NCBI GenBank assembly: GCA_016185525.1
Contig: JACPNK010000006.1
Location: 115,440-179,439, forward strand
Reading direction: 5' to 3'
DNA: 64,000 nucleotides
Source: Candidatus Yanofskybacteria bacterium
GTDB lineage: Bacteria > Patescibacteriota > Minisyncoccia > 2-02-FULL-40-12 > IGHO2-12-FULL-4
Part shown: positions 6,201 through 53,923 of the stretch, piece after piece
Layout of the letters: every line of letters starts with the position of its first letter
Position numbering within the stretch: position 1 is the stretch's first letter
The notes under the pieces: model-generated
Databases searched by the model: none
Told to the model about the DNA's origin: nothing
The model's input: only the letters and a program-made list of their open reading frames with translations
Translations under genes and position numbers: made by a program

Positions 6201-6275
6201 GGCGCCATCGTCTAGCTTGGCCTAGGACACAGGATTCTCATTCCTGGAACTGGGGTTCGAATCCCCATGGCGCTG
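6201..6275 (+). tRNA. tRNA-Glu (anticodon CTC)
   Basis: Cloverleaf with acceptor GGCGCCA/UGGCGCU, D-arm UCGUCUAG...GGACAC and T-arm GGGGUUCGAAUCCCC, all near-identical to bacterial tRNA-Glu; anticodon loop UUCUCAU; no encoded CCA. Confidence 0.85.
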
Positions 6276-11725: not shown

Positions 11726-13117
11726 CTATCTTGGTTTGACCAAGGGTCCATGCTCCGTGTCTTCTATTTGGTAGCCTTTTGAACTTATTTGCCGGCGCAG
11801 GTCGTCGGCTTCGGAGTAGCGCTTGTCTCGTCGCAGTTTCTCGCGCGTATCAATCATATCCAAGATCTCATTCGGGGTCTTTTTTGTTTTTCTGGGGATT
11901 ATGCCCAAAATGTTGTTGAACTCTTCAAAAAGTTTTTTTATTTTTTTGGCTGATTTTTTATCAACTTTATTTTCAGCCAACAATGGATTTAACTCTTTTA
12001 TCATTTTAAAAATAGCGGCAATGGCTTGAGGAGTGTTAAAATCGTCGTCCATAGCTTCCAAGAATTCCTTCCTTGTTTCAAGCAAGATTTCCCCTGCGCC
12101 ACTGAGAAGTTGAACTTCTAAGCGGCGGATATTTGATAATTTGCGCAGAAATTCTTCGATTCTTTGGATACCGGCCCAAGAAGATTTTATCGCTTCTTCG
12201 CGATAATCAATAGGCGAACGGTAGTGAGTGGACAAAACAAGAAAACGCAAAGCCTCTGCGGAATATTTTTTAAGAGTGTCTCTGATGGTTATAAAGTTGC
12301 CAAGAGATTTGGACATTTTCTGGCCGTTGATAGTCAGAAAACCGGTGTGGAGCCAATACTTTACAAAAGGTTTCTTGCCGGAAATTGACTCCATTTGGGC
12401 TATTTCCGCTTCGTGGTGAGGGAAAATTAAATCTCTGGCTCCGCCGTGCAGATCGTACTGCTCCCCGAAATGCTTTTCGGTAATTGCCGTGTCTTCAATG
12501 TGCCAGCCGGGCCGCCCTTCTCCCAGTTCTGTTTTCCATTTTGGTTCTCCCGGTTTTGAAAACTTCCACAAGTTAAAATCGCCCTTGTTCTTTTTATTGA
12601 CGCTTTCGTCTATGCGACTTACGGCATCTTCCGCGCTTTCGGTTGTGCGACCGGAAAGCTTGCCATATTCCGGAAATTTTTTTAAGTCAAAGTAAAAACC
12701 GTCACTAGGAATTTCGTAAGCAAAGCCTTTTTCCTTCAGCCTTTTAACTTGCGATACGATTTGTTTGATATACTTTGTCGCCGGAGCGTATTTATAGACA
12801 CTGGTAATGCCAAGCGATTTTACATCTTGGTAGTAAGCTTTTTCAAATTCTTTAGCCAGAGTCAGCGGTTCTTTGTTTTCCTGTTTGGCTTTCGCGATTA
12901 TTTTATCTTCTATGTCGGTAATGTTCTGCAGGTATTTAACCCTGTAGCCTTTGTATTTGAGGTATTTGGCGATGACGTCAAAAGAAATATAAGTACGCGC
13001 GTGGCCGATATGCGAGTAATCATAAACCGTCGGTCCGCAGACAAACATATTCACCTTTTTGCCTTGGCGCGGCACAAATTCTTCTTTTTGTCTGGTTAGA
13101 GAATTATAGATTTGCAT
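11726..13117 (-). CDS. cysS: cysteinyl-tRNA synthetase
   Basis: HIGH (HIGHARTY) and KMSKS motifs with class I CysRS architecture. Confidence 0.9.
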   Translation of the reverse strand: MQIYNSLTRQKEEFVPRQGKKVNMFVCGPTVYDYSHIGHARTYISFDVIAKYLKYKGYRVKYLQNITDIEDKIIAKAKQENKEPLTLAKEFEKAYYQDVKSLGITSVYKYAPATKYIKQIVSQVKRLKEKGFAYEIPSDGFYFDLKKFPEYGKLSGRTTESAEDAVSRIDESVNKKNKGDFNLWKFSKPGEPKWKTELGEGRPGWHIEDTAITEKHFGEQYDLHGGARDLIFPHHEAEIAQMESISGKKPFVKYWLHTGFLTINGQKMSKSLGNFITIRDTLKKYSAEALRFLVLSTHYRSPIDYREEAIKSSWAGIQRIEEFLRKLSNIRRLEVQLLSGAGEILLETRKEFLEAMDDDFNTPQAIAAIFKMIKELNPLLAENKVDKKSAKKIKKLFEEFNNILGIIPRKTKKTPNEILDMIDTREKLRRDKRYSEADDLRRQISSKGYQIEDTEHGPLVKPR

Positions 13118-14280: not shown

Positions 14281-14331
14281 TGTATCAAAAAAAAGTTAAG
14301 ACAAAAACATGGCCTGTTGTTTTATGAACAG

Positions 14332-14358
14332 TTAGCACTCTTGACACGAGAGTGCTAA
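14332..14358 (+). promoter_or_regulatory. CIRCE operator (HrcA binding site)
   Basis: TTAGCACTC-N9-GAGTGCTAA perfect inverted repeat 20 nt upstream of hrcA. Confidence 0.9.
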
Positions 14359-14377
14359 CTGCTAAAATGGAAACAAT

Positions 14378-20626: not shown

Positions 20627-20801
20627 ATTTCAATTTGTCGATCCTTATTCACCTTGGCAAAGAGGTACTAACGAAAATACCAACAGGCTTATCCGAATTT
20701 GAAATTAAAAAAGCCGAGATTAGACTTAATTCTCGGCTCAGATAGAGGTTAAACCTCTATCATAAAAGGGGTGGAGTTCTAAAGAAATTTCACAATCTTA
20801 G

Positions 20802-22246: not shown

Positions 22247-22272
22247 TTAACCCTACACCATGTGGTGTAGGG
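22247..22272. terminator. rho-independent terminator (mur operon end)
   Basis: aaccctacaccatgtggtgtagggtt 12-bp stem with flanking T/A runs. Confidence 0.65.
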
Positions 22273-22278
22273 TTGTTT

Positions 22279-26339: not shown

Positions 26340-27269
26340 TTAGACTTTTTCCAAAAGTCTACCGTAACCGTTTATAAACTCTTTGGTGTTTAGCACTTTT
26401 CCTCCTTCAAGCTGGAGTTTTAACAGCTCTAAATAATCCTTAGCGCAAGGCATAATCAAAAGACCGTTTTTTTGATAAATTTTTCCACTTAGAAGTTCTC
26501 CACTTAGAAGTTCAACTTCTAAGTGACTTTTATGAATTTTGCAGTCAATAATTTTTAATATTTTATTTTGCCACTTAAACCATATTCCCGGCCATTTGTG
26601 AAAGGCGCGAAATTGGTTGTAAATTTCTTCGGCTGTTTTGTGCCAGTTTATTTTGCCGTCTTCTTTGGTAATAATTTTAGTGAAGGTGGCTTGCGACTCG
26701 TCTTGCGGTTGAGGTGTGGTTTTTCCACTAAGATATTTCGGTAATAACTTAAGTAATAAGCCAGCACCCTTTTTCACCAGACGCATTTTTAGGTCATAGT
26801 ATTTGTCATCCGGCGCGATTGGTTCTTGTTCCATTCCTAAGACGGGTCCGTGGTCAACTTTTTCGTCCAGCACAAAGACCGTTACGCCGGTCTCTTTTTC
26901 GCCGTTAAGCAGGGCGTACTGGATGGGGGACGGGCCGCGGTATTTCGGTAACAGCGAACCGTGGATATTGAGTAAACCATGTTTCGGTAGGTGCAAAAAC
27001 CGTTCAGGAATAATTTTTCCGTAATCTACAACAATTCCGACTGTGGATTGTTTGGCAATTTCTTCAATGCGAGCCAAAGACGGGTCATCTTTTTTAAAAT
27101 TTTCCGGCTGAAGCACTTCAATATTGTGAGATAGGGCTAACTGCTCGGCGGGTGTTGCCGTTTGGCTGTCCGGCGCGGTTACCACAGCCACAACAGTATA
27201 GTCAGCTTGAATCAGCGCTTCCAATACGGGCGTGGCAAAATCCGAAGTGCCAAAGAAAATAGTTTTCAT
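26340..27269 (-). CDS. fmt: methionyl-tRNA formyltransferase
   Basis: N-terminal formyltransferase domain (IFFGTSDFA, HGSLLPKYRG) and C-terminal domain; downstream of def. Confidence 0.9.
   Translation of the reverse strand: MKTIFFGTSDFATPVLEALIQADYTVVAVVTAPDSQTATPAEQLALSHNIEVLQPENFKKDDPSLARIEEIAKQSTVGIVVDYGKIIPERFLHLPKHGLLNIHGSLLPKYRGPSPIQYALLNGEKETGVTVFVLDEKVDHGPVLGMEQEPIAPDDKYYDLKMRLVKKGAGLLLKLLPKYLSGKTTPQPQDESQATFTKIITKEDGKINWHKTAEEIYNQFRAFHKWPGIWFKWQNKILKIIDCKIHKSHLEVELLSGELLSGKIYQKNGLLIMPCAKDYLELLKLQLEGGKVLNTKEFINGYGRLLEKV
26486..26525. repeat. REP-like palindrome (RAYT-associated family) in-frame inside fmt
   Basis: 25-bp perfect palindrome cacttagaagttcaacttctaagtg plus adjacent half-site direct repeat ccacttagaagtt; encodes LEVELLSGELLSGK. 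Confidence 0.85.
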
Positions 27270-33500: not shown

Positions 33501-33809
33501 ATGTCGAGTTTTGTATTTCGTTGCACGACGAGAGGCAGCCATACTTTTTTGGAGTTTAATACTCCGGTGAAAATATTTGACTCTGTTAGCGGAGCACGCT
33601 TAATTCTGGAGGAATTACTTGACTTTGAGAAACAAAATCCGGACATGCATATTGTTGGTTGGAAACCGGAAACACACATGGCCACAAATACTAGATTTGG
33701 CATTCTCACCCCTGTTTGTTTTGGAATTTGGATTGACCATGAGCCAAGAGAAAAGGAACCTGAAGACTGTGACTTTGATGCTCTTGAAAGGGCACTAGGA
33801 CAAGATTGA
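33501..33809 (+). CDS. hypothetical small protein, paralog A (WIDHE family)
   Basis: 102 aa, ~35% identical to the 34750..35055 product; shared motifs IL..L..FE.QN, WIDHE and ALxQD. Confidence 0.6.
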   Translation: MSSFVFRCTTRGSHTFLEFNTPVKIFDSVSGARLILEELLDFEKQNPDMHIVGWKPETHMATNTRFGILTPVCFGIWIDHEPREKEPEDCDFDALERALGQD

Positions 33810-33833
33810 ACCCGCGTTTCGCGGGTTTTTTTT
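33808..33833 (+). terminator. rho-independent terminator
   Basis: aacccgcgtttcgcgggtt hairpin plus a T-run; near-identical to 35054..35078. Confidence 0.8.
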
Positions 33834-33847
33834 ATTTCTTAAAAATC

Positions 33848-33883
33848 TACTGAGAAGCTACTGAGAAGTTGAACTTATCAGTA
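33848..33883. repeat. REP palindrome with half-site direct repeat, 5' flank of the RAYT gene
   Basis: tactgagaag x2 half-sites, then the 25-bp palindrome tactgagaagttgaacttatcagta. Confidence 0.85.
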
Positions 33884-33905
33884 GAACATGTTAAATTTCT
33901 GAAAT

Positions 33906-34550
33906 ATGCATAAAGAATATTTTACCAATGGGGAATTTTACCATGTGTATAATCGCGGAAACAATAAGCGAAAAATTTTTTTGGATCAAAGAGACTTTAA
34001 AAGATTTTTTCAAAGCATACGGGAATTCAATTCGGAAGAACCGATTGGTAGTATATATCTTAATTCTTTTAAGGACGCCTCGCTTAGAAGTTCAACTTCT
34101 AAGTTAGTTGATTTTGTTTGTTTTTGTTTAAATCCAAATCATTATCATTTTATTCTCAAGCAACTAAAAGAAAGGGGTATTGAAAAGTTTTTACATAGAC
34201 TTGGCACGGGTTATACTAAATATTTTAATGAAAAACATAAATGCAGTGGCTCTCTTTTTCAGGGCAGGTATAAAGCGATACACTTAAACTCTAATGAATA
34301 CCTACTACATCTTAGTGCCTATGTGAATTTAAATTATGAAGTTCACCAACTGAGAAGTTCAACTTATCAGTGTGATTATAAATCTAGTTGGGCAGAATAT
34401 CAAAACAACTTGGTAGAAAGTATATGTAATAAAGACATTGTACTTTCTCAGTTTAGAAACTTTGATAAGTATAGGGAATTTGCAGTTAATGCTATTCAAA
34501 TAAGTAGGACCAAAAAAGATATGGAAAAGTTGTTATTGGAAGAGGTCTGA
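33906..34550 (+). CDS. REP-associated tyrosine transposase (RAYT; IS200-like HuH Y1 transposase, TnpA_REP)
   Basis: YHVYNRGNNKRKIF N-terminus, HuH motif NHYHFIL, GRYKA and Y..N C-terminal tyrosine region are typical of COG1943 RAYTs; the gene is flanked by inverted REPs. Confidence 0.8.
   Translation: MHKEYFTNGEFYHVYNRGNNKRKIFLDQRDFKRFFQSIREFNSEEPIGSIYLNSFKDASLRSSTSKLVDFVCFCLNPNHYHFILKQLKERGIEKFLHRLGTGYTKYFNEKHKCSGSLFQGRYKAIHLNSNEYLLHLSAYVNLNYEVHQLRSSTYQCDYKSSWAEYQNNLVESICNKDIVLSQFRNFDKYREFAVNAIQISRTKKDMEKLLLEEV
34083..34103. repeat. REP palindrome inside the RAYT coding sequence, copy 1 (in-frame)
   Basis: cttagaagttcaacttctaag encoding LRSSTSK. Confidence 0.85.
34350..34370. repeat. REP palindrome inside the RAYT coding sequence, copy 2 (in-frame)
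   Basis: ctgagaagttcaacttatcag encoding LRSSTYQ. Confidence 0.8.
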
Positions 34551-34557
34551 CTCTGAT

Positions 34558-34645
34558 CACTGATAAGTCACTGATAAGTTGAACTTCTCAGTAAAAACTT
34601 CTCAGTAAAAACTTCTCAGTAAACTTCTCAGTAAATTTCTCAGTA
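34558..34645. repeat. REP palindrome plus tandem half-site array, 3' flank of the RAYT gene
   Basis: cactgataagt x2, palindrome cactgataagttgaacttctcagta (inverted relative to the 5' REP), then (aa)aacttctcagta x4 tandem. Confidence 0.9.
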
Positions 34646-36656: not shown

Positions 36657-37118
36657 ATGCGGGTCTTGAAAAACAATAACTACGGATTTGTAAATTCTAA
36701 ATTTAAAATTTTTTATTTAGTTTTTGTTTTATCAATATTATGTTTCTCTGCTGTTCCGGCCCGGGGCTACCCTATTGACGGCGCTGAAAATGCCGATAGC
36801 TATTCAAATTTTGGTCTTGAACAGGCCCGCAAGGTTAGTGGTTCGGTTAATGAGCTAATCAGATCTCTGCTTGGTCCTAGTTTTTCTTCTCTTACCTCGG
36901 TTGATGTTAACAAGAGTTTTGGTCCTGACCTTAATAAGCTTATACCCGGCGGTACGGGTTTAAGCTTTGATGATTTTATCAATATCAAGAGTTTTTCTAC
37001 TGACGACATATCGGGCAGTATTAAAGCAGTCGCCGTTCTTTTTATAAAGTTGATTGTTACGACTCTGTCAGTTACATCAGAAATTCTTAAACTGGTTTTA
37101 AGCCTGTTAACTCAATGA
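36657..37118 (+). CDS. secreted hypothetical protein
   Basis: Signal peptide and GGAGGG RBS. Confidence 0.5.
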   Translation: MRVLKNNNYGFVNSKFKIFYLVFVLSILCFSAVPARGYPIDGAENADSYSNFGLEQARKVSGSVNELIRSLLGPSFSSLTSVDVNKSFGPDLNKLIPGGTGLSFDDFINIKSFSTDDISGSIKAVAVLFIKLIVTTLSVTSEILKLVLSLLTQ

Positions 37119-37127
37119 TAGCCGAAT

Positions 37128-37177
37128 TATTCGGCTATCATGTCGCACAAGTGTGAATGTGCGACCCATGTTGTGTG
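37128..37177. terminator. tandem hairpins between convergent genes
   Basis: gatagccgaattattcggctatc and gtcgcacaagtgtgaatgtgcgac. Confidence 0.5.
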
Positions 37178-40340: not shown

Positions 40341-40383
40341 TGTAAGGCCTACTATAGAGGCTAAGCCTCTATAGTAGGGAAAC

Positions 40384-50432: not shown

Positions 50433-52901
50433 TTAGTTCTTGTGAAAGACAAAATTCTTTATTTCTTCCTTAAATCTCTGCCGAGAAAATTTCTCGGCAG
50501 AGATTTTTATTTCTTCCGGATGGTAACTTTCATAATTTTCATTCAATCTTCTGACTCCATCAGCTAAAACTGCCGGATGCGGGTCTTCAAAAAACTCGCC
50601 ATTTATGCCCTCTTCAATATACTCCAAAGCCCCGCCTCTTTTCAAAGCTAAAACCGGTTTGCCAAATTGCATGGCCTCAAGAGGTGTTAAGCCAAAGTCT
50701 TCTTCTTGGGGCATAATAAAAGCTTTTGCGCCTTGGTAGTATTTTATCAAATCTTCGTCCGAAACCTCTCCCGCCATTTTTATCATTTTTTTGTTTTCAA
50801 TCATAGACTTCAATTTTTTATACTCCGGCCCACTGCCCACTATCACCAAAGGCAGTTCAAGTTTGTTGAAGGCTCGTATGGCAATATCAATATTTTTGTG
50901 AGGAAACAAGCGAGAGACGATTAAGAAATAATCTTTAAGACTTGAGTCACAGTGCTTCGCACTTTCGCAGAAAGTGCCTGGCTCTTGACAAGACGAGCCG
51001 CTTTGCGCGATGAGAAAATCTCGCTGGGATTTTCGAAGGTCCGAAGAAGTACTGTGATGAAAGTCTTGTGTGGGCGGATAAATTACTATTGAATCGCGGT
51101 TATAGTATTTCTTAATCCTCTGCTGAACATTTTTTGAAATAGCGATAAATTCGTCAACTCTGTCTGCCGCGCTTCTGTCCCAAATCCTCAAAAAATGCTG
51201 AAGTATGCTTATTCTGAAATTTTGCGTTTTTCGTTTTTCGCTTTGCGTTTGGTACTCCTTGTTCCAATCCCACAAAAATCTTGTCGGGCTGTAGCAATAG
51301 CAAATATGCCTGGTTTTGGGTTTTAAAATCAGGCCTTTAGAGAAAGCTATGGAAGAAGATATGACCAGGTCGTATTGACTCAAATCAAAAGACTCGGCCG
51401 CAACAGGCAAGAGGGGCAAAAAAAGTTTGTGGTTTACGAATTTCAGTTTGTAAAGTTTTTGTAAAAAAGAGCTCTTAATCTTTGCTTCCGGCAAGAATTT
51501 GTCGGTAAATTTTTTGTTATAAAAAAAAGTGTAAATCGGCGCTTCCGGGAACATTTCATGCAAAACTTTCAGCACTCTTTCCGCTCCACCCAAACTCAAA
51601 ATCCAATCGTGGACAAGGGCTATTTTTTTGTTTTTTTCTGAATTTGCCGGCATAATTTTGGGTTCAATATTGTTGCTTTGACCAGCTTGTTTCCCCTGAA
51701 ATGTTTTTATAACCAGGTACATGTACAGTAGTGTTATTGGCAAAGATTTGCCTGCAATCATCAGGCTTCTAAGGACTTCTGTATTATTTTTGTGCCAAAA
51801 AAAGTATAAGGTTGGAGAGGCTAAAAGCAGCCATATCGTAAAAATGAAGATTTTTTCTTTTCGACTGACGCTAAGCAAGAAAGTAAGAGCAACTATGGGC
51901 GCAAGAAAAGCCAAGAGGCTCTCCCAGACTTCTTTATAGAAAATAAAGGGGGAAAGCGCCAGAAGCAAGGGGAAATAAAGTTCTGACTTTGAATTGTTAT
52001 TCTTAAATAAGTAAACGATCGGAACGATGCTGGCGATGGAGACCAAAACAATCCCCAGGACTTTATACAGAATGTAATGTTTATCGTAAAAAAGTTCTCC
52101 AACGAAAGCCGGTAGTCCGAAGTTATCAATGTAGTGAACTTGCCAGCCGATACGTTCTTTGTCTGTAAGGAATCCGAATGCCTTTTTGGCGGAAGCAATA
52201 AAGCTGTCTGATGGCGGATCTTTAAAATAAATAAGGTAAAGTATGGTAAACGCGGCAATTCCTAAAAAATAAAATATGGCTTTATAGTTTTTTTTCTTGA
52301 AATAGTAAAAAATTCCAAATATAAAGATAGGTTTTGTTATTATGCTGCTCAACCAACCGAAAACTGAAACTCCGTTTTTTTTAGAAACTACGCCCCAGAA
52401 GAAAATTAAAAAAAACAAACCGGCCAAAGAGTTGTACTGTCCCATTCTCCAATCAGATTGGTAGCTCCAAAAAATCCAGTAAAGTCCGACAGATAAAATT
52501 ATTTGCCAAGCATCTTTTTTTAAAGTTAACCCAATTTTTGTTATAAAAACTAACCCAAAAATTAGAATCGCAGCCTGAAGAAGGATGACATAATAGCGAT
52601 AAAATGTTTCAAAGGAAACCTTCTCTGTTAGAGGACTTGCCAGAATTGGCAGAATCGGCAAGTATTTCCAAGGAAAATAGTCGTTTGTGAACAGAGTTTC
52701 TTGAGCGCTTTGGCCGTAAATAAAATTACCACTTCCAAAATTTTTGCCGGCTTGGTACAAAGATTGGAAGTCCTCACCAATGGCTGCGCATAAGGTATAT
52801 CCAAGGTCCGAACAAGAAAACTGCCAAAACTGGAGAATGCTTAGAAGGTACAGTGTGGAAATTACGGCTATGATTAGAAATATTTTTCTAGAATCGGTCA
52901 T
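50433..52901 (-). CDS. fusion protein with N-terminal polytopic membrane domain and C-terminal GT4 glycosyltransferase, carrying a GC-rich in-frame insertion
   Basis: ~400-aa multi-TM N-terminus; C-terminal GT-B motifs (ALVHDWI...EDFGLTPLEAM); the linker between YPP and KDYFL is ~30 aa longer than expected. Confidence 0.7.
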   Translation of the reverse strand: MTDSRKIFLIIAVISTLYLLSILQFWQFSCSDLGYTLCAAIGEDFQSLYQAGKNFGSGNFIYGQSAQETLFTNDYFPWKYLPILPILASPLTEKVSFETFYRYYVILLQAAILIFGLVFITKIGLTLKKDAWQIILSVGLYWIFWSYQSDWRMGQYNSLAGLFFLIFFWGVVSKKNGVSVFGWLSSIITKPIFIFGIFYYFKKKNYKAIFYFLGIAAFTILYLIYFKDPPSDSFIASAKKAFGFLTDKERIGWQVHYIDNFGLPAFVGELFYDKHYILYKVLGIVLVSIASIVPIVYLFKNNNSKSELYFPLLLALSPFIFYKEVWESLLAFLAPIVALTFLLSVSRKEKIFIFTIWLLLASPTLYFFWHKNNTEVLRSLMIAGKSLPITLLYMYLVIKTFQGKQAGQSNNIEPKIMPANSEKNKKIALVHDWILSLGGAERVLKVLHEMFPEAPIYTFFYNKKFTDKFLPEAKIKSSFLQKLYKLKFVNHKLFLPLLPVAAESFDLSQYDLVISSSIAFSKGLILKPKTRHICYCYSPTRFLWDWNKEYQTQSEKRKTQNFRISILQHFLRIWDRSAADRVDEFIAISKNVQQRIKKYYNRDSIVIYPPTQDFHHSTSSDLRKSQRDFLIAQSGSSCQEPGTFCESAKHCDSSLKDYFLIVSRLFPHKNIDIAIRAFNKLELPLVIVGSGPEYKKLKSMIENKKMIKMAGEVSDEDLIKYYQGAKAFIMPQEEDFGLTPLEAMQFGKPVLALKRGGALEYIEEGINGEFFEDPHPAVLADGVRRLNENYESYHPEEIKISAEKFSRQRFKEEIKNFVFHKN
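50945..51060. repeat. GC-rich in-frame insertion with internal palindromes in the GT4 domain
   Basis: Local GC is clearly higher than the flanks; gcactttcgcagaaagtgc palindrome; encodes HHSTSSDLRKSQRDFLIAQSGSSCQEPGTFCESAKHCDSS. Confidence 0.6.
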
Positions 52902-52915
52902 TTTGAAACCGATAG

Positions 52916-53923
52916 TTATCTTTTGGTCATGATGTTTCTCTTGTAAACATCAAGATTGTTTAACACAACACCGGTGCCTTTTGAGACGCAGAGCAGTGGG
53001 TCGTCAGCTATGCGGCAGACTACGCCGGTGACTTTGGTTACCAAGGTGTCTATGTTTTTTAGCAATGCTCCTCCGCCGGAAATTACGATGCCTTTGTCAA
53101 CGATGTCAGAACATAACTCCGGAGGCGTGTCCTGCAGGACAGTTTTAATGGTCTGGACTATTTCTCTTAACTGTTCTTGCATTGCTTCGGTGATTTCGTT
53201 TGAGCTGATTTCCACGGTTTTCGGATAACCGGAAGTCAAGTCTCTGCCTCTGACATTTATTTTTTCTTCAGCGCTTTGCTTAACAGCGCTGCCTATGGCT
53301 ATTTTAATTAATTCAGCTGTTCTGTCGCCGATTGCCAAGCTGTGCCTCTTTTTTATGTAATCAACTATTGCTTCGTCAATCCTGTTGCCACCCACCCTGG
53401 CAGACGCGGCATTGACTATGCCGCCAAGGCTGATAATCGCCACTTCGGTAGTGCCGCCGCCGATATTTAATATCATGTTGCCGGAGGAGCTGTTTATGGA
53501 GATTTTGGCTCCGATGGCGGCCAAAACAGGTTCTTTAACCAGATAAGCCGCTTTGGCGCCGGCATTGATGGTTGCTTCAATAACCGCCCGTCTTTCGGTA
53601 GAGGTAATGCCTGCCGGCACCGAGATTAAAACTTCAGGCTTAACTAAGCCTATCTTGCCGACTGCTTTTTTAATGAAGTATCTCAACATGGCTTCAGTGA
53701 CCCTGTAGTCGGCAATAACCCCGTCTTTTAGGGGTCTGGAGACGACGATACTGTCGGGGGCCCGGCCTATCATTTCCTTGGCTTCGTTGCCTACAGCAAT
53801 GATTTTGTTGTCAAGAACTGAAATAGAAACAACTGACGGTTCGTTTACAATGATGCCCTTTTTGGGCAAAAAAACCAGTGTGTTGGTTGTGCCCAAATCA
53901 ATACCGATTTTCTTTACAAACAT
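52916..53923 (-). CDS. mreB: rod shape-determining protein MreB
   Basis: IGIDLGTTNT actin-fold phosphate-1 motif and MreB length. Confidence 0.9.
   Translation of the reverse strand: MFVKKIGIDLGTTNTLVFLPKKGIIVNEPSVVSISVLDNKIIAVGNEAKEMIGRAPDSIVVSRPLKDGVIADYRVTEAMLRYFIKKAVGKIGLVKPEVLISVPAGITSTERRAVIEATINAGAKAAYLVKEPVLAAIGAKISINSSSGNMILNIGGGTTEVAIISLGGIVNAASARVGGNRIDEAIVDYIKKRHSLAIGDRTAELIKIAIGSAVKQSAEEKINVRGRDLTSGYPKTVEISSNEITEAMQEQLREIVQTIKTVLQDTPPELCSDIVDKGIVISGGGALLKNIDTLVTKVTGVVCRIADDPLLCVSKGTGVVLNNLDVYKRNIMTKR

Follow-up and report, generated by a model that had tools for sequence, protein, structure and literature searches.

Palindromes of one family in fmt, cysS and a Y1 transposase gene

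We analysed a stretch of 64,000 nucleotides (hereafter the window) from a metagenome-assembled genome (MAG) of Candidatus Yanofskybacteria, a bacterium of the candidate phyla radiation (CPR, Patescibacteria), in which short palindromes of a single family lie inside and around a gene resembling the RAYTs, the tyrosine transposases associated with repetitive extragenic palindromes (REPs). The family pattern, CTNAGAAGTTSAACTTMTNAG, is found at six sites in the window against 0.05 expected, and none of 100 shuffles reached six. One copy is located in fmt, encoding methionyl-tRNA formyltransferase, one in cysS, encoding cysteinyl-tRNA synthetase, two within the RAYT open reading frame (ORF) and two on its flanks, so that four of the six lie inside ORFs. 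The cores measure 21-27 bp with arms of 10-13 nt, are capable of forming stem-loops and have computed folding energies of -6.7 to -10.4 kcal/mol. Their arms come in three variants, A (CTTAGAAGTT), B1 (CTGAGAAGTT) and B2 (CTGATAAGTT): the fmt copy and the first site inside the RAYT ORF are A/A, the upstream, second internal and downstream copies of the RAYT gene are B1/B2 with a G.A mismatch, and the cysS copy is a B1/A hybrid. The window copies are singlets accompanied by direct half-site repeats, arrays of which adjoin three of the six palindromes, and inverted REP doublets are absent from the window. Ends of the CTAC...GTAG type are confined to the upstream copy, while CA...TG or CAA...TTG ends are found in the other copies and loci. 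A scan of the complete window against Rfam, at gathering thresholds, matched the palindromes to no known RNA family, its sole match being one tRNA gene at 6201-6275. A first-pass annotation, made from the sequence alone, had listed the fmt copy and the two copies within the RAYT ORF, all three of which were confirmed, and had missed the cysS copy, the two flanking copies and the half-site arrays.

The RAYT-like gene (33906..34550, plus strand) encodes a Y1 (HUH) tyrosine transposase of 214 aa that matches Pfam Y1_Tnp with 28.0 bits, above the cut-off of 23. Its HUH motif is H79-Y-H81 and its catalytic tyrosine is Y139, within a predicted helix spanning residues 130-141; N78, H79, H81 and Y139 are all invariant in 119 homologs. 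An AlphaFold (AF2) model of the protein (predicted local distance difference test score, pLDDT, 82.4; predicted template modelling score, pTM, 0.83) gave as its best Foldseek match 4er8_A (E 1.8e-5, prob 1.00, TM 0.46/0.58), the E. coli REP-associated tyrosine transposase in complex with a REP hairpin, followed by the TnpA proteins of IS608 and ISDra2. Searching the PDB with a sequence profile built from the RAYT alignment returned no match. The transposase clade comprises 1,043 clusters at 50% identity (E<=1e-30). The gene is present once in the 64-kb window, and the order gltX, M23 peptidase, RAYT, Pyr_redox_2 is common to the window and a relative whose RAYT is 60% identical. No conserved regulator gene was found beside the cassette, the neighbours being gltX, the M23 peptidase gene and Pyr_redox_2, or varying by locus.

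Four palindrome positions in the transposase cassette

The window cassette holds palindromes at four places. The upstream palindrome, CTACTGAGAAGTT-g-AACTTATCAGTAG (33858..33884, arms B1/B2 with the G.A mismatch), is preceded by a direct half-site repeat, CTACTGAGAAG (33847..33857). Internal site 1, CTTAGAAGTT-c-AACTTCTAAG (34083..34103, plus strand), is a perfect A/A palindrome translated as LRSSTSK (residues 60-66) in a loop ahead of the HUH beta-strand, and internal site 2, ACTGAGAAGTT-c-AACTTATCAGT (34349..34371, core 34350-34370, plus strand), has B1/B2 arms and is translated as LRSSTYQ (residues 149-155) in a loop behind the helix of the catalytic tyrosine; the first-pass annotation had given both copies correctly in position and reading. 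The downstream palindrome, CACTGATAAGTT-g-AACTTCTCAGTA (34569..34593), starts 19 nt past the RAYT stop codon and is an inverted copy of the site-2 type. It is preceded by a direct half-site repeat, CACTGATAAGT (34558..34568), and followed by four tandem right-arm half-sites (34596..34645), three of AACTTCTCAGTA and one of AATTTCTCAGTA, with a period of 12-14 nt. The arm asymmetry of the two flanking copies is mutually inverted.

The same fixed four-palindrome architecture characterises the cassette in a clade of CPR bacteria (Parcubacteria). Among 80 homologous loci fetched from metagenomes, 63 had recognisable anchor motifs; most of these 63 also have flanking copies, and about 50 carry a locus-specific palindrome at the internal positions, with arms mostly of 10-18 nt, loops of 1-5 nt and mostly perfect pairing. 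Each locus repeats its own palindrome at up to four fixed places. The upstream copy begins 38-58 nt ahead of the ATG; the internal ones lie at +168..+197 (site 1) and +431..+494 (site 2); and the last lies downstream, at about -2..+10 nt relative to the stop codon. Within a locus the copies stay almost identical: their variable apical part shows 98.3% identity, versus 46.5% between loci, with 21 variants in 38 loci. Palindromes occupy the same two internal positions in most RAYT homologs of 50-77% identity, and the trait fades past roughly the 50 closest representative clusters, a survey in which the regular-expression anchors left 40 usable proteins. Three distant plasmid Y1 homologs have no such palindromes, and the idea that internal palindromes are a general property of Y1 transposases was rejected on this ground. 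A fixed orientation rule for the four copies, as with strand-specific ends of insertion sequences (ISs), was likewise rejected, as the loops flip freely.

At the protein level, peptides resembling L-[GR]-x-S-x-S-K are aligned at both internal positions in homologs 58-77% identical, and the two match each other within each protein. This recurrence at both sites in most homologs could be read as a functional protein motif, the palindrome being a by-product of its codons. A covariation test on an unselected alignment of the site-2 region from the 63 loci speaks against that reading. In this alignment 79.8% of cells pair and compensatory changes occur in 11 of 11 pairs; double-change cells number 127 versus 43.7+-8.4 in shuffles (none of 500 reached 127), and the covariation score is 0.445 versus 0.07-0.16 in slid controls. 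Randomisation among synonymous codons lowered the pairing from the observed 8.47 to 4.74 of 11 (maximum 5.42 in 1000 trials). In an independent set of 119 proteins, 89 have a palindrome-compatible 7-mer at site 1 and 99 have one at site 2 (background 0.22%); of the 72 proteins with both, 70 have two almost identical peptides. The amino acids covary as reverse-complement codon pairs (R-S, G-S, S-T, S-A, G-T, H-V and D-V). Because of the covariation and the outcome of the synonymous-codon test, we conclude that the constraint acts on the nucleic acid and not on the peptide. The same DNA is moreover present in the non-coding flanks and is read in other frames in fmt and cysS, and the site peptides are predicted to be disordered, residues 59-62 and 149-156 being the only internal ones in the model with pLDDT <50. 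The peptide-motif explanation is effectively refuted by the synonymous shuffling and the covariation, and we leave it next to no chance.

The first-pass annotation had regarded intragenic copies that preserve the frame as unusual, and as a sign of either strong selection for frame-preserving insertion or recent activity. For the two copies inside the RAYT ORF, the fixed positions in most homologs of 50-77% identity and the compensatory covariation at the sites speak against such recency, and homologs without the palindrome keep a segment of equal length in its place, for example LNGQFFK or PSGTFYK. The copies within the RAYT gene are thus conserved architecture, long-maintained DNA structures rather than fresh insertions. 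What stood is the selection on frame. Of the six frames in which the palindrome can be read, only three are stop-free, the remaining ones holding TAG or TGA, and the three intragenic hosts fmt, cysS and RAYT occupy exactly these three. Where an internal copy has a 1-nt loop, this is c or t (TCA/TTA) and in no case g or a (TGA/TAA); flanking copies use all four. Selection against stop-containing frames and orientations is visible.

The upstream copy coincides with a putative promoter. The centre of the window palindrome in its g orientation reads TTGAAC (33869-33874), a -35-like hexamer, followed after 17 nt by the -10-like hexamer TAAATT (33892..33897, plus strand, read from sequence and preceded by TGt), which in turn stands 8 nt before the ATG of RAYT. 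A -10-like hexamer is present in the spacer between palindrome and ATG in 44 of 44 loci and ends 6-8 nt before the ATG in 32 of them; with the -10 box so close to the start codon, a leaderless RAYT mRNA is implied. In 27 of the 44 loci the hexamer lies exactly 3 nt after the CCAAG end of the palindrome (CCAAG-TGn-TAnnnT), the TG of the outer arm supplying an extended -10, and this pattern occurs at none of 35 downstream copies. The upstream palindrome thus covers the -35 element and spacer of the gene's own predicted promoter, an operator position, and for the window gene this promoter is deduced from the family-wide pattern. About 20-30 nt upstream of the half-site and upstream palindrome, a strong intrinsic terminator (33808-33828; GAACCCGCG-ttt-CGCGGGTTT and then a T-run) separates the cassette from the M23 peptidase transcript.

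The position of the copies relative to transcription bears on whether the functional unit is instead an mRNA hairpin, acting in stability, RNase III processing or translational pausing, with the DNA palindrome serving just as its template. Three of the copies, at sites 1 and 2 and downstream, are transcribed; the last of them closely follows the stop codon, often forms part of a longer stem peculiar to its locus, and recalls the role of REPs as 3' stabilisers. However, the upstream copy in the -35/spacer region of the leaderless promoter would lie outside the mRNA, yet has the same sequence; copies occur in either orientation relative to transcription; and single mismatches show no sense-strand G.U bias (4 G.T, 4 A.C and 3 other in a small sample, n=11). 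Because the upstream copy is untranscribed and the G.U bias is lacking, a sense-strand RNA role is disfavoured, and we consider it quite improbable. The symmetric arms, orientation-independent loops and promoter position also resemble operators accompanied by auxiliary operators within coding sequence, which would make the palindromes duplex binding sites of a dimeric protein other than the transposase and the fmt and cysS copies members of a regulon or by-products. Yet no conserved regulator gene accompanies the cassette, and the Y1 transposase is the sole constant partner of the palindromes, while the crystal structure of its closest structural relative contains this very kind of hairpin, so that we hold a separate regulator to be very unlikely.

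Dispersed copies in fmt, cysS and other genes

The fmt gene (26340..27269, minus strand) is an intact ORF of 309 aa with Pfam matches to Formyl_trans_N (E 7e-34) and Formyl_trans_C (residues 200-302, E 7e-24). Its palindrome, CACTTAGAAGTT-c-AACTTCTAAGTG (26501..26525), is perfect, with A/A arms of 12+1+12 nt and 100% complementarity, and a half-site at 26486..26497 is a direct copy of its left arm with a 15-bp period. Translation of the minus strand gives HLEVELLS(G) for the palindrome, and the segment of Fmt over palindrome and half-site reads ...KSHLEVELLSGELLSGKIY... (peptide HLEVELLSGELLSGK). As a single-stranded DNA (ssDNA) hairpin the palindrome folds with -10.3 kcal/mol (z -4.7). The sequence and the Pfam domains accordingly bear out what had first been described here, a perfect 25-bp palindrome with a half-site repeat in the C-terminal domain of Fmt, and the intact ORF bears out that it is read through with no disrupting frameshift.

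The Fmt segment of about 14 aa, for which the same annotation had raised the possibility of an insertion, is not a clean one. The palindrome is located in a hypervariable loop of the C-terminal beta-barrel domain, and the nearest ortholog (78% identical) is just 5 aa shorter at this loop, which corresponds to the 15-bp half-site duplication (ELLSG). Further Fmt orthologs are 2 aa shorter at the loop, and a solved Fmt structure is likewise 5 aa shorter in the region. At the DNA level two close fmt orthologs are without the palindrome, and in a 74%-identical ortholog (L116) the loop holds another perfect palindrome, CTGCTTGGAAACT-g-AGTTTCCAAGCAG, read in a frame of the same type. In locus L070, where fmt adjoins RAYT, fmt holds that locus's own RAYT palindrome in another turn, as a clean insertion of about 8 aa. 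The RAYT cassette lies <1 kb from fmt in two unrelated metagenomic loci, L050 and L070, and in the window the two genes are 6.6 kb apart in the same conserved neighbourhood. Elsewhere in the protein, an N-domain loop (residues ~33-40, around 27150-27170) is 7 aa shorter in the window Fmt and its closest orthologs; in other Fmt proteins it reads PDxPxGRxxxLTPSPVK, and in E. coli Fmt it contacts the initiator tRNA.

The cysS gene (11726..13117, minus strand) is also intact. Its palindrome (12098..12126, core 12102-12122) has B1/A arms with one mismatch, is read in-frame as RLEVQLLSG and occupies a variable linker ahead of the DDDFNT helix. In a 79%-identical ortholog (L117) the identical codons hold ACTTGGGAG-ctcaa-CTCCCAAGT, which differs by two compensatory pair changes, and in an ortholog at 64% ACTTAGGAGTT-c-AACTCCTAAGT is shifted by 7 nt and read in the other frame; three additional CysS orthologs contain palindrome-compatible peptides. 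The linker does not differ in length from that of orthologs without a palindrome. Palindromes thus persist at orthologous sites of host genes with compensatory change, and neither the fmt loop nor the cysS linker shows a clean gain in length.

These comparisons bear directly on the proposal that an active REP was recently inserted, with the frame preserved, into fmt and RAYT. Several features would suit such an event: the fmt copy is perfect and identical to RAYT site 1 in its A/A arms, the 15-bp half-site duplication makes the Fmt loop 5 aa longer than in the nearest ortholog, the tight turn of the L070 Fmt shows a clean insertion of about 8 aa, and only stop-free frames are used. Against it stand the conserved internal positions in RAYT homologs of 50-77% identity with palindrome-free homologs of equal length, the different palindrome at identical cysS codons in a 79%-identical ortholog, and the want of a clean gain of 7-8 aa in the fmt loop and the cysS linker over palindrome-free orthologs. 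On balance we judge recent insertion unlikely.

Other loci have dispersed copies in genes for AtpD, a Mur ligase, a SpoU methylase, a PMT_2 glycosyltransferase and ApbE; orthologs of murC, atpD and spoU as further hosts were looked for in the window and none is present. Across 791 kb of related loci, RAYT cassettes hold about 155 palindromes of this type and about 15-18 more are dispersed, with none in shuffles. The dispersed copies sit mostly in long ORFs at a density of about one per 45-50 kb, and 11 of the 13 that match strictly lie within ORFs >=100 aa; extrapolation gives a few tens of copies per Mb at most. The Mur ligase copy, in another Yanofskybacteria MAG (JACPNJ01; L013, 743-791), is a 49-bp REPIN-like inverted doublet of the window-type palindrome with 23-nt arms, translated in-frame as THLEVELLKLRSSTSKW, and is the only locus where a doublet was seen. 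A scan of GTDB representatives with the REP pattern returned relatives as well as unrelated phyla sharing the core. In MAGs of Chloroflexota/Ardenticatenales the core palindrome AGAAGTTSAACTTCT forms tandem alternating arrays resembling REPs and bacterial interspersed mosaic elements (loci L004, L005, L008, L014, L015, L020, L023, L025, L027 and L031), and no homolog of the CPR transposase was found near these arrays within the fetched 8 kb.

The window also contains palindromes of other kinds. A second family, ATAGAGGYT-a-ARCCTCTAT, is found at 20742-20760 and 40354-40372, both intergenic (two sites against 0.04 expected), the latter copy extending to perfect 15-nt arms over 40348-40378. A perfect 35-bp palindrome with 17-nt arms (50472-50506) lies in-frame near the 3' end of an ORF for a GT4 glycosyltransferase of 838 aa (50436..52949, minus strand); it bears no sequence relation to the RAYT family and has no second copy in any of the DNA that was fetched. 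Intergenic perfect or near-perfect palindromes with loops of 1-4 nt are located at 311-335, 14329-14361, 22249-22274 and 37115-37141, and some of these may be terminators.

Proposed mechanism, known systems and meaning

We favour, at slightly better than even confidence, the explanation that the fmt palindrome is a dispersed member of a low-copy family of hairpin palindromes belonging to a RAYT-like gene that is probably single-copy and vertically inherited. Dispersed copies lie mostly in-frame in variable loops and linkers of housekeeping genes. The palindromes would be the cognate ssDNA hairpin sites of the transposase, and the copy embedded in the promoter would act as an operator giving autoregulation. 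The likeness of the copies may be kept by copy-replacement at existing sites, which alters sequence and not length; candidate processes are cleavage and rejoining by the transposase, or short-tract conversion aided by template switching within the palindrome. In a gene-dense genome, purifying selection would spare only stop-free, in-frame copies in tolerant loops, and the half-site arrays might be scars of slippage or abortive joining.

A transposase acting on the palindromes is dispensed with if these are self-maintaining structural DNA, perfected by template switching and spread by short-tract gene conversion, with the transposase a historical passenger inactive on them. Compensatory double changes and free loop inversion are the expected products of template switching, which reportedly goes back to work by Ripley and Lovett on the correction of quasi-palindromes, and both the weak coupling between protein and palindrome and the differing variants within one genome (see below) would fit. 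However, template switching explains the complementarity of arms and not the 98% identity among four sites 200-300 bp apart, and tracts of 20 bp are poor substrates for homologous recombination. The palindromes are also strictly associated with the cassette, which holds about 155 of the roughly 175 palindromes in the 791 kb, with none in shuffles. We regard a passenger transposase as doubtful, though less so than recent insertion.

Several observations weigh against our preferred explanation, in which the transposase acts on its hairpins. The 214-aa protein scores 28.2 bits with NCBIfam REP_Tyr_transpos, far under the cut-off of 80, and by this measure is a distant relative of the canonical equivalog. 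Because some homologs have one internal site or none, the internal copies are not indispensable. Loop orientation varies freely among the four sites, which fits a symmetric double-stranded DNA site equally well as a strand-specific hairpin, and a generic consensus promoter scan did not list the RAYT promoter of the window. In MAG JACPNJ01 the RAYT cassette (L119), cysS (L118) and the Mur ligase gene carry three different apical variants, so homogenisation is not genome-wide. Protein and palindrome similarity are weakly correlated (Mantel r 0.28), and the same palindrome variant recurs in RAYTs just 54-57% identical; tight coevolution of protein and palindrome was rejected on account of this weak coupling, and their tight co-specificity is likewise unsupported. 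Finally, the relative that lacks RAYT in 16 kb of syntenic DNA does have an fmt without the palindrome, but this is a single case and represents one 16-kb contig, not a whole genome.

The closest known system is that of the proteobacterial REPs and RAYTs (E. coli yafM, Stenotrophomonas and Pseudomonas; Nunvar 2010, PMC2817692; Ton-Hoang 2012, PMC3333891; Messing 2012, PMC3479197), for which flanking of RAYT genes by their REPs and compensatory REP evolution are established (PMC2817692). Both systems have a Y1 HUH transposase gene with a short palindrome on both sides, a syntenic locus, which here too is probably single-copy and vertically inherited, and palindromicity kept by compensatory change, and the best structural match of the window protein, 4er8, comes from the proteobacterial system. 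Unlike that system, the present one has two extra copies within the ORF at fixed in-frame positions and a promoter-fused copy, is low in copy number, has mostly intragenic dispersed copies and no general GTAG tag, and its window protein remains far under the NCBIfam equivalog cut-off. The first-pass grouping of the palindromes into one family linked to a RAYT-like Y1 transposase gene stands, as do the intact hosts and the in-frame reading. The REP definition fits poorly: there are six copies in 64 kb, four of them in the cassette, rather than tens to hundreds per genome, most of them are not extragenic, and the GTAG/CGTC end tag is not general. REPINs (Bertels and Rainey 2011, PMC3116915) are similarly non-autonomous palindromes that persist and diverge with a single-copy RAYT, but they are inverted REP doublets, extragenic and in tens to hundreds of copies, whereas the window has singlets and half-site arrays.

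Two further systems share single features. Transposases of the IS200/IS605 family (TnpA of IS608 and ISDra2) are Y1 enzymes that recognise subterminal ssDNA hairpins at both ends, but these elements are multi-copy and mobile, and their left and right hairpins differ and lie outside the ORF; the cassette described here is syntenic between genomes with 60%-identical transposases and has identical hairpins at four places. The compensatory changes and loop inversions observed at the fixed sites are what quasi-palindrome correction yields in one step, but this is a general mutational process that explains neither the identity between sites nor the link to a transposase cassette.

To call intragenic REPs unprecedented would be too strong, since Di Nocera 2013 (PMC3733652) lists REPs inside ORFs, including tRNA synthetase genes, cites the palindromic elements of Rickettsia (RPEs; Ogata 2000) and describes different REPs at about the same site in orthologous recB genes of Xanthomonas. 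Intragenic in-frame REPs are thus already known and the present ones are not new in kind, sharing with REPs and RPEs their placement in tolerant loops of functional housekeeping genes, tRNA synthetase genes included. Published intragenic REPs, however, are a minority of extragenic high-copy families, whereas here copies are as a rule intragenic, the transposase gene being among the hosts. The length of RPEs is roughly 100-150 bp, and no dedicated transposase is known for them, whereas the elements described here measure 21-40 bp and are tied to a Y1 transposase cassette. In the open-access literature, whose silence is not proof, we found no paper on REP copies inside a RAYT ORF or on RAYTs and REPs of CPR bacteria, and no description of a promoter-embedded copy or of a low-copy, mainly intragenic lifestyle.

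All current models of RAYT function and of the matching of REPs to RAYTs rest on the extragenic high-copy REPs of proteobacteria. A clade of at least about 1,000 clusters (50% identity) offers a compact natural test system in which the positions of four identical sites are known; one is in the promoter, and two lend themselves to synonymous recoding. As a more tentative possibility, the clade may consist of domesticated Y1 transposases that have their hairpin written into their own promoter, coding sequence (twice) and 3' end, and that autoregulate and re-template all copies, so that a DNA structure would dictate part of the sequence of the enzyme and of Fmt, CysS, AtpD and MurC. If true, this would be a self-referential REP/RAYT system suited to genomes with almost no intergenic space. 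In the gene-dense genomes of CPR bacteria, palindromic DNA lasts inside essential genes over long divergence and shapes loops of Fmt, CysS and other proteins, which is relevant to annotation, to alignment-based phylogeny of CPR marker genes and to the interpretation of lineage-specific insertions.

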